In this document: positions 12,539 to 15,236 of the stretch, piece by piece
Layout: every line of letters begins with the position of its first letter
Numbering within the stretch: position 1 is the first letter of the stretch
DNA from: Escherichia coli
GTDB lineage: Bacteria; Pseudomonadota; Gammaproteobacteria; Enterobacterales; Enterobacteriaceae
DNA: 64,000 bases
Assembly: GCF_003334335.1 (NCBI RefSeq)
Contig: NZ_QOWQ01000012.1
Strand: one strand, 5' to 3'
Made by a program: the position numbers and the translations under genes
Notes under the pieces: generated by a model
The model's database searches: none
What the model was told of the DNA's origin: nothing
Seen by the model: only the letters and a program-made list of their open reading frames with translations

Positions 12539-12997
12539 ATGACAATTTGGGTGGATGCCGACGCGTGTCCCAATGTAATTAAAGAGATTTTGTATCGCGC
12601 GGCGGAACGTATGCAGATGCCGCTGGTACTGGTAGCAAACCAGAGTTTACGCGTGCCGCCATCGCGATTTATTCGTACGCTGCGCGTCGCGGCAGGTTTC
12701 GACGTTGCCGATAACGAAATTGTCCGGCAGTGTGAAGCGGGCGATTTGGTGATCACCGCAGATATACCTTTGGCTGCTGAAGCCATCGAGAAAGGCGCTG
12801 CGGCGCTTAATCCGCGCGGCGAACGTTACACGCCAGCGACCATTCGTGAGCGCCTGACGATGCGCGATTTTATGGATACCTTACGTGCCAGTGGGATCCA
12901 GACCGGCGGACCAGATAGCCTTTCACAACGTGACCGCCAGGCCTTTGCCGCGGAGCTGGAGAAGTGGTGGCTGGAAGTGCAACGTAGTCGTGGCTAA
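12539..12997 (+). CDS. yaiI: UPF0178 family protein YaiI
   Basis: Start at ATG 12539 ([15 protein letters not shown]...), 152 aa; the track ORF extends 40 codons upstream. Confidence 0.85.
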
Positions 12998-12998
12998 A

Positions 12999-13125
12999 TG
13001 TAATTTATTATTTACACTTCATTCTTGAATATTTATTGGTATAGTAAGGGGTGTATTGAGATTTTCACTTTAAGTGGAATTTTTTCTTTACAATCGAAAT
13101 TGTACTAGTTTGATGGTATGATCGC
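12999..13125 (+). promoter_or_regulatory. aroL control region: TyrR boxes and TrpR-like operator
   Basis: tgtaat-N6-tttaca at 12999-13016 and tggaat-N6-tttaca at 13075-13092 match the TyrR box consensus TGTAAA-N6-TTTACA; gtactagtt (about 13100-13110) resembles a trp operator half-site; tatgat near 13116 is a plausible -10. Confidence 0.65.
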
Positions 13126-13179
13126 TATTCTCATGACACCGGCTTTCGCCGCATTGCGACCTATTGGGGAAAACCCACG

Positions 13180-13704
13180 ATGACACAACCTCTTTTTCTG
13201 ATCGGGCCTCGGGGCTGTGGTAAAACAACGGTCGGAATGGCCCTTGCCGATTCGCTTAACCGTCGGTTTGTCGATACCGATCAGTGGTTGCAATCACAGC
13301 TCAATATGACGGTCGCGGAGATCGTCGAAAGGGAAGAGTGGGCGGGATTTCGCGCCAGAGAAACGGCGGCGCTGGAAGCGGTAACTGCGCCATCCACCGT
13401 TATCGCTACAGGCGGCGGCATTATTCTGACGGAATTTAATCGTCACTTCATGCAAAATAACGGGATCGTGGTTTATTTGTGTGCGCCAGTATCAGTCCTG
13501 GTTAACCGACTGCAAGCTGCACCGGAAGAAGATTTACGGCCAACCTTAACGGGAAAACCGCTGAGCGAAGAAGTTCAGGAAGTGCTGGAAGAACGCGATG
13601 CGCTATATCGCGAAGTTGCGCATATTATCATCGACGCAACAAACGAACCCAGCCAGGTGATTTCTGAAATTCGCAGCGCCCTGGCACAGACGATCAATTG
13701 TTGA
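13180..13704 (+). CDS. aroL: shikimate kinase II
   Basis: 174-aa ORF with P-loop GPRGCGKTT; matches recalled AroL. Confidence 0.95.
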
Positions 13705-13744
13705 TTTTCGAGCGCCTATACTTAACGTTCATCCCGTGAAATAA

Positions 13745-13945
<201 letters not shown>

Positions 13946-14202
13946 CCGCATCAGACTGCTCGGAAGGGATTCTGAGTGCCACTACAAGGGATCTGCGTCA
14001 CATTTTTCATAATTCATGTTTTTCTAATAATTAGAATATTAAACAATAACAATCCATTACTGGAATCATTTGGAATCTTTACATTATGCCGTGCACGTCT
14101 GCTGCTACGCTTTTTGTCATTTGTAGCACAAGTAAGTGTCAGCAGTGGTGCTTCACACTTGCCCGGTAATTAACGACGAAAGAAAAGTAAGGTGGATGAA
14201 CA

Positions 14203-14880
14203 ATGAGTGCGTCGTTGGCGATCCTGACCATCGGCATTGTACCTATGCAGGAAGTTTTGCCGCTCCTGACGGAATACATTGACGAAGATAATATTTCCCA
14301 TCATAGCCTGCTGGGGAAGTTAAGTCGTGAAGAAGTGATGGCGGAGTACGCGCCAGAAGCAGGCGAAGACACCATTCTCACATTATTAAATGACAACCAG
14401 CTGGCCCATGTTTCGCGTCGCAAAGTGGAGCGTGACCTGCAAGGTGTGGTTGAAGTGCTCGATAATCAGGGTTATGACGTCATTTTATTAATGAGTACAG
14501 CAAACATTAGTAGTATGACTGCGCGTAATACGATCTTTCTTGAGCCGTCGCGAATATTGCCTCCACTGGTTTCCTCTATTGTTGAAGATCATCAGGTGGG
14601 GGTTATCGTTCCGGTTGAGGAGATGCTGCCCGTTCAGGCGCAAAAATGGCAAATTTTGCAGAAATCGCCGGTATTTTCATTGGGTAACCCCATTCATGAT
14701 TCAGAACAAAAAATCATTGATGCCGGGAAAGAATTACTGGCAAAAGGGGCTGATGTCATCATGCTGGATTGTTTAGGATTTCACCAACGTCATCGCGATT
14801 TACTGCAAAAACAGCTCGATGTTCCTGTCTTGCTGTCTAACGTATTGATTGCACGGCTGGCTGCGGAATTACTGGTGTAA
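14203..14880 (+). CDS. aroM: AroM family protein (function unknown)
   Basis: 225-aa [25 protein letters not shown]...; matches recalled AroM. Confidence 0.9.
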
Positions 14881-14951
14881 TTTTGCGTGACAGCCAGCGC
14901 CTCTGGCCCCTATAGTGAAGTAGATGTTCAACTACCAAACAGGGCCAGTTT

Positions 14952-15236
14952 ATGCTTCAAAGTAATGAGTACTTTTCCGGCAAAGTGAAATCAATCGGCT
15001 TTTCCAGCAGCAGCACTGGTCGCGCCAGCGTGGGTGTTATGGTTGAAGGCGAATACACCTTCAGCACCGCTGAGCCGGAAGAGATGACGGTAATCAGTGG
15101 CGCGCTGAATGTGTTACTGCCTGACGCGACCGACTGGCAGGTGTATGAAGCCGGTTCGGTGTTTAATGTTCCCGGTCACAGTGAGTTTCATCTGCAAGTT
15201 GCCGAACCCACCTCTTATCTGTGCCGCTATCTGTAA
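14952..15236 (+). CDS. ppnP: pyrimidine/purine nucleoside phosphorylase PpnP (YaiE)
   Basis: 94-aa [20 protein letters not shown]..., cupin-like; matches recalled YaiE/PpnP. Confidence 0.9.

Follow-up and report, generated by a model that had tools for sequence, protein, structure and literature searches.

At class I CRP promoters of the lacP1 type, CRP binds at a site whose centre is near -61.5 (or -71.5, -82.5, -92.5) from the transcription start. The consensus -10 element for sigma-S is KCTAYRCTT, and some sigma-S promoters of the extended -10 kind are co-activated by cAMP-CRP (csiD type). Complex operons combine internal promoters with partial terminators. The genes aroL, yaiA and aroM of Escherichia coli are listed as a single operon, and DeFeyter and Pittard are said to have placed aroM under the aroL promoter in 1986. 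Here we describe the intergenic gap between yaiA and aroM, as found in a 64-kb stretch of E. coli DNA (the window, whose coordinates are used throughout unless another record is named), and we compare it with these systems. Given the CRP binding, the transcript ends and the expression changes observed at this locus, the gap is likely to be a composite boundary of two transcription units, in which the yaiA 3' end is joined to a CRP-bound aroM promoter region, rather than an idle spacer. The gene aroM thus probably has its own CRP-bound, sigma-S-responsive promoter region.

Both yaiA (13754-13945) and aroM (14203-14880) are encoded on the plus strand, and the gap between them comprises 257 bp (13946-14202). 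Window positions are converted to those of E. coli K-12 MG1655 (NC_000913.3) by adding 393225, and in the MG1655 record the gene order is aroL, yaiA, aroM, ppnP. The G+C content is 0.40 for the gap overall and 0.27 at 14000-14099, compared with about 0.5 in the flanking genes. The original prediction had described this gap as AT-rich and long for a junction within an operon. Both features are real, and the length is not specific to K-12, since the gap measures 186-297 bp (mostly 213-261) in the 68 Enterobacteriaceae species that have the same gene order with both genes intact. A 601-bp query around the gap was found with at least 95% identity in all 5,426 complete E. coli genomes, with yaiA, aroM and aroL annotated beneath the match. 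AT-richness alone is normal in promoter-bearing intergenic DNA. A simple scan of the gap returned one weak promoter-like match and no terminator-like site.

Transcription starts were taken from the Cappable-seq list of Ettwiller et al., which is given in U00096.2 coordinates (PMC4782308). The conversion used here (window = U00096.2 - 392449) was chosen from 18 offsets on 68 listed starts: it places 56 of the 68 on a purine, with 39 pyrimidine-purine steps, and the 17 neighbouring offsets give at most 45 purines. With this conversion, plus-strand starts were located at 13130 (aroL promoter, score 7.4), at 13729 directly before yaiA (score 719), and at two positions inside the gap. The distal aroM start, 14055 (U00096.2 406504), has a score of 6.3 and an enrichment of 6.6. 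The proximal and stronger start, 14120 (U00096.2 406569), has a score of 30.9 and an enrichment of 3.0, the latter below that of neighbouring starts. Both fall on pyrimidines and both come from this single dataset; in the SMRT-Cappable-seq supplements, neither these genes nor these coordinates are listed. The original prediction had named an internal aroM promoter among its possibilities, a reading that a gap devoid of starts would have contradicted. The two starts found there speak in its favour, as do the CRP ChIP-seq site at 13987-14002, the listing of aroM in CRP SELEX, and the reduced expression of aroM, but not of aroL, in Δcrp and ΔrpoS strains.

The start at 13729 lies in the 49-bp gap between aroL and yaiA (13705-13753). 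Together with its -10 element CTATACTTAA (13716-13725), a textbook sigma-S -10, it makes up a plus-strand yaiA promoter (13716-13729) with a score about 100 times that of the aroL promoter. A sigma-S ChIP-seq peak at 406100-406199 (U00096.2) has been assigned to yaiA. The transcripts with their 3' end at 13981, inside the gap, originate from this promoter. Further upstream, a second start precedes the known aroL promoter, at 13053 (score 4.7), with the extended -10 TGgTATAGT (13037-13053).

The primary 3' end of the yaiA mRNA was mapped by Term-seq to 13981 on the plus strand (NC_000913.3 position 407206), and the flanking sequence printed in the supplement corresponds to window 13931-13991 (PMC7815308). 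Three entries for yaiA were found in that supplement, two of them with scores of 1001 and 9592. The yaiA 3' UTR accordingly covers 13946-13981, and it contains, on the same strand, the stem-loop GCUCGGAA-GGGA-UUCUGAGU (13958-13977), with a stem of 7-8 bp; the mapped end sits 4 nt past it. A G+C-rich stem-loop with an RNA 3' end mapped at the element is expected of an intrinsic terminator. Here, however, the stem is followed by GCCACUACAAGG and a U tract is absent, so the element does not qualify as an intrinsic (Rho-independent) terminator. In the RNAalifold consensus, built from 14 sequences of Escherichia, Salmonella and Citrobacter, the stem retains 7 pairs, and a single compensatory change is seen along with switches from G-U to A-U. 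The energy is about -11 kcal/mol for the 48-nt fold and about -9 kcal/mol for the consensus structure of the 14 relatives, and the fold of the hairpin by itself was not significant against shuffled controls. Term-seq shows that the majority of RNAs started at the very strong yaiA promoter end at 13981. Since there is no U tract, the end would probably be formed either by termination or cleavage further downstream and 3' trimming back to the hairpin, or by non-canonical termination. The suggestion that the gap might contain a processing site was therefore only partly right: what stands is a yaiA 3' end immediately after a conserved stem-loop.

The element in the first 48 nt after yaiA is non-homologous across genera (loci L066, L069, L039 and L045 against L021-L037). 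Canonical terminators with a U tract are found after yaiA in some genera (L066, L069), the hairpin of Escherichia, Salmonella and Citrobacter lacks such a tract, no hairpin is present there in the Enterobacter clade, and unrelated hairpins stand in its place elsewhere. How tightly yaiA and aroM are coupled is probably not the same in all genera.

The CRP site starts 6 nt beyond the yaiA 3' end. Haycocks et al. reported AGGGATCTGCGTCACA (13987-14002) as a high-confidence CRP ChIP-seq site of ETEC H10407 and assigned it to aroM in their Table 1, the motifs having been sought with MEME up to 50 bp either side of the peak centre (PMC4287617). The peak coordinates in that work and those of the RefSeq record differ by about 200 bp. 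The register of the peak was checked against the phoA and ddlA sites. The distance between the phoA and aroM peaks, 4914, equals the distance between both motifs in the window, indicating that the CRP peak sits on 13987-14002 despite the shift. In K-12, aroM was among the new CRP targets identified by genomic SELEX (Shimada et al.). Compared with TGTGA-N6-TCACA, AGGGATCTGCGTCACA matches 8 of the 10 core positions, and it matches 16 of the 22 positions of the extended consensus. Its right half is a perfect TCACA with a T-rich flank, and its left half is a poor AGGGA. The TCAC of the right half is invariant in all 64 of 64 species, while the left half stands in the proper register only in Escherichia, most other genera having CGTG shifted by 1 nt.

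The CRP site's midpoint, 13994.5, is at -60.5 relative to the start at 14055. This arrangement resembles the lacP1-type class I promoters, with their CRP site near -61.5: the site is occupied (ChIP-seq and SELEX), it stands upstream of weak -35 and -10 elements, and the gene downstream of it, aroM, is down in Δcrp at pH 7.5. It departs from that type in the poor left half, AGGGA, and in that the start it would serve, 14055, is the weaker of the two (in one dataset). We infer that CRP serves this particular start: cAMP-CRP, detected at 13987-14002 by ChIP-seq and SELEX, would recruit RNA polymerase from the class I position via the alpha C-terminal domain to a promoter at 14055 with weak -35 and -10 elements. 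Based on its position relative to 14055, the candidate -10 of this distal promoter is ACAATAAC (14043-14050, plus strand), a weak match to TATAAT that includes the conserved block ATAAC (14046-14050, identity 0.82). The run ttaaacaataacaatcc (14039-14055), to which the original prediction had drawn attention, spans -16 to +1 of this start. With respect to the stronger start, 14120, the CRP site is at -125.5, which is too far for ordinary activation. A second CRP-like 16-mer, TGTCATTTGTAGCACA (14115-14130), overlaps 14120 and matches 8 of 10 positions; the match is probably due to chance, given that Salmonella and Citrobacter do not conserve its left half.

Upstream of start 14120 stands TGcTACGCTT, an extended -10 in which position -13 is C, as is typical of promoters that sigma-S RNA polymerase uses. 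This element is contained in the conserved block CTGCTACGCTT (14102-14112, plus strand, identity 0.82), with the TG at 14103-14104 and TACGCT at 14106-14111, and GCTACGCTT at 14104-14112 fits KCTAYRCTT with the C at -13. The bases C-13, T-12, A-11 and T-7 are invariant in 42 unique orthologous spacers, for which the search pattern required part of the block. The GCTACGCTT motif and the rpoS dependence of aroM are shared with the sigma-S extended -10 promoters. In contrast to these, no sigma-S ChIP-seq peak has been reported in the yaiA-aroM gap (the dataset has its peak at the yaiA promoter, and its supplement is without an aroM entry). Counted from the final T of TACGCT, the start is reached after 9 nt, which is still within the customary 6-10 nt but towards their upper limit, and there is no usable -35 at 16-19 bp from the -10, a conserved TTTACA being 22 bp away. 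The CRP position of -125.5 is a further difference. In RNA polymerase SELEX with four minor sigma factors, the sole mention of aroM is a weak peak of the sigma-32 holoenzyme near window 14087 (intensity 3.6, with a cut-off of 3.0). In the 64-kb window, 6 matches to CTAYRCTT were found where 4.9 are expected by chance, and 20 CRP-like matches where 26.6 are expected. Since both counts are at chance level, sequence matches alone prove nothing. We infer that, of the two aroM starts, 14120 is the one used by sigma-S RNA polymerase. The aroM 5' UTR from this start is 83 nt long (14120-14202, plus strand) and has the Shine-Dalgarno sequence AGGUGG at 14190-14195. Folding of this leader against shuffles gave no significant secondary structure, and its ribosome binding site is strong and unstructured.

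One genome per species was scanned. This gave 74 loci with aroM, and the aroL-yaiA-aroM order was kept almost everywhere among them. Twenty-six species were aligned, and in the 23 of them outside Escherichia the gap bases agree with those of E. coli at a mean identity of 0.47. Besides ATAAC and CTGCTACGCTT, the conserved blocks are TCACATTTTTCA (13998-14009), made of the CRP right half and its T-rich flank, with an identity of 0.86, the joint-highest of any block in the gap; ATCTTTACA (14075-14083, identity 0.84), at -45 to -37 of start 14120; and AAGGTG (14189-14194, identity 0.86), the Shine-Dalgarno sequence. Identity of 80% or more in the 23 non-Escherichia species, which are spread over the aligned genera, is reached in three 9-nt windows that do not overlap, and none of 20,000 column permutations reached that; the clustering of conservation in the gap exceeds chance (p < 1/20,000). 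The right half of the CRP site, the -10 belonging to start 14120 and the Shine-Dalgarno sequence each fall on one of these blocks. Measured start to start, TCACA and TTTACA are 81 nt apart in 34 species and 80 nt apart in 7, and for TTTACA and CTGCTA the separation is 24 nt in 46 of the 48 species with both blocks. By contrast, between CTGCTACGC and the ATG it ranges from 87 to 111 nt, and the leader at 14125-14160 is poorly conserved, with many indels. No covariation was found in the conserved blocks. Fixed spacing of blocks without covariation points to a function at the protein-DNA rather than the RNA level.

Block ATCTTTACA is invariant in the 42 unique spacers. Its TTTACA is too far from the -10, at 22 bp, to act as a -35. 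The 16-mer at 14070-14085 is a weak CRP-like site near -42.5, and the middle bases of the -10 block CTGCTACGCTT, which are normally free, are also invariant. One reading of these facts, tentative and rather unlikely, is that ATCTTTACA and CTGCTACGCTT together form a platform to which an uncharacterised regulator binds, or a promoter of unusual geometry, and that this controls aroM across Enterobacteriaceae. Such a geometry may consist of the -35-like TTTACA at 22 bp from the -10, or of tandem CRP-type sites at about -42 and -125 on the same helical face. If this were true, the enigmatic aroM gene would be controlled by the ATCTTTACA/CTGCTACGCTT module and not by a plain sigma-S -10. Several known elements were considered by eye for ATCTTTACA and its partner and rejected. 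A TyrR box lacks the G and C invariants, and sigma-E, sigma-32 or sigma-28 elements, as well as a marbox, were dismissed for ATCTTTACA with its partner. A sigma-54 promoter, GTGCAC-N5-CTGCT, is present only in E. coli and its -24 part is not conserved; a MerR-type long-spacer promoter made of ATCTTTACA and its partner has a spacer that is not conserved; and an IHF site matches 7 of 9 positions in E. coli only.

The expression of aroM was reported in a 2026 transcriptome study, which counts it among the 21 genes with lowered expression at pH 7.5 in Δcrp as well as in ΔrpoS. At pH 5.5 it was also down in ΔrpoS, and not down in Δcrp. The rpoS effect was confirmed by qPCR. Expression of aroM depends on rpoS at both pH values, and a review also lists the gene as rpoS-dependent. 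Both aroL and yaiA were absent from the Δcrp and ΔrpoS down lists. The drop of aroM in Δcrp is a whole-gene RNA-seq value and not a promoter-specific one. The rpoS dependence could come from read-through of the sigma-S-dependent yaiA promoter, and if it is inherited in this way, it would agree with an account in which there is no functional internal promoter. In that account, aroM is reached only by transcripts that read through from the promoters of aroL and yaiA, the gap amounts to a long 3' UTR followed by a leader, and the 5' ends within it are noise from the very abundant yaiA transcript. The listing of the three genes as one operon and the reported placement of aroM under the aroL promoter are in line with this, as are the many minor "TSSs" scattered within yaiA, downstream of the start with score 719, and the lack of a canonical terminator in the gap. 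We nevertheless consider it unlikely. Transcripts of yaiA have their main 3' end at 13981, upstream of either aroM start; the 5' ends at 14055 and 14120 are triphosphate-enriched (6.6 and 3.0); CRP binds in vivo at class I distance from one of them; aroM is listed as down in Δcrp and ΔrpoS, whereas aroL and yaiA are not; and promoter-like blocks are kept at fixed spacing across genera. With an internal aroM promoter in place, upstream read-through may still add to the aroM transcripts.

It is very improbable that the gap encodes a regulatory RNA, be it a 3'-UTR sRNA of about 32-38 nt containing the yaiA hairpin, or a structured leader or riboswitch for aroM. The sRNA version has a counterpart in Salmonella Typhi, where StyR-169, a stable RNA of 32 nt, was cloned from the region of the yaiA terminator and detected by Northern blot. 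The locus is the same and so is the conserved hairpin 3' of yaiA, but in E. coli this hairpin is not followed by a U tract as intrinsic terminators are. Together with the 3' end at 13981, a weak triphosphate 5' end mapped at 13944 (score 1.8) would bound an RNA of 38 nt. It resembles StyR-169 in size, but noise from the abundant yaiA mRNA is just as plausible an origin for it. We know of no function and no E. coli Northern blot for such a hairpin fragment. Rfam gave nothing relevant at E ≤ 10 over 12900-15100, only chance matches. Fold z-scores against shuffles ranged from -0.9 to +0.8 (both strands of the gap, both leaders and the hairpin region), those of the gap and the leaders from -0.5 to +0.8, and the loss or replacement of the yaiA hairpin in other genera likewise argues against a conserved RNA. 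The small RNA envisaged in the original prediction draws weak support from StyR-169, and finds neither an Rfam match nor evidence of an independent sRNA gene. As for a structured leader, a repeat search of the gap gave short chance repeats and one imperfect inverted repeat (14093-14104 / 14140-14151). Start 14120 lies inside this repeat, so the main transcript cannot form it. The poor conservation of 14125-14160, with its many indels, and the conserved blocks at fixed DNA spacing without covariation also speak against an RNA structure.

Finally, that the gap encodes a small protein is scarcely credible: a 27-codon ATG frame (14086-14169) and a 65-codon GTG frame (13976-14173) are both in the program-made list of open reading frames, and ATG 14086 lies downstream of start 14055, but no Shine-Dalgarno sequence precedes 14086, its ATG is replaced by ATA or ACG in Salmonella, Citrobacter and Enterobacter, the indels are not multiples of three, and start 14120 begins within both frames.

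If the gap is indeed the boundary between a yaiA unit and an aroM promoter region, aroL-yaiA-aroM is best described as three nested units and not as one simple TyrR-controlled operon, which would correct a textbook simplification. In this description aroL is under TyrR/TrpR, yaiA has a very strong sigma-S-type promoter, and aroM is CRP-bound and rpoS-dependent. With one CRP-linked and one sigma-S-type start, aroM expression would follow carbon source and stationary phase without depending on the aroL promoter and its TyrR/TrpR control. This provides a hint on the function of AroM, which would be expressed under carbon limitation and in stationary phase and not with aromatic amino acid supply. 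The locus has the starts before each gene (13130, 13729 and 14055/14120) and the mapped 3' end between the second and third genes that are known from complex operons, and is an ordinary example of these, with no difference from them. Every element is already present in public genome-wide datasets, and what they add up to is an ordinary internal promoter within an annotated operon. The exact coordinates should be useful for designing aroL and aroM constructs in shikimate-pathway engineering.

Downstream of aroM, ppnP (yaiE) has signals of its own: GTGACA-18-TATAGT at 14887-14916, a weak start at 14923, and a 3' end that Term-seq placed at NC_000913.3 408495 (window 15270). It appears to be a separate unit. 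Two rearrangements were also observed at the locus. In E. coli strain B1172 (L077 2971-4179), an IS4-like ISVsa5 is inserted in the aroM 5' UTR at about window 14159, downstream of both mapped starts, and separates aroM from its promoter region. In E. albertii NBRC 107761 (L070 2100-2508), a deletion of about 133 bp has removed yaiA's 5' part together with its promoter, and also takes the end of aroL or the intergenic region. In the same strain the -10 block is changed to CTGCCAGGCTT, and the CRP site and ATCTTTACA are intact.
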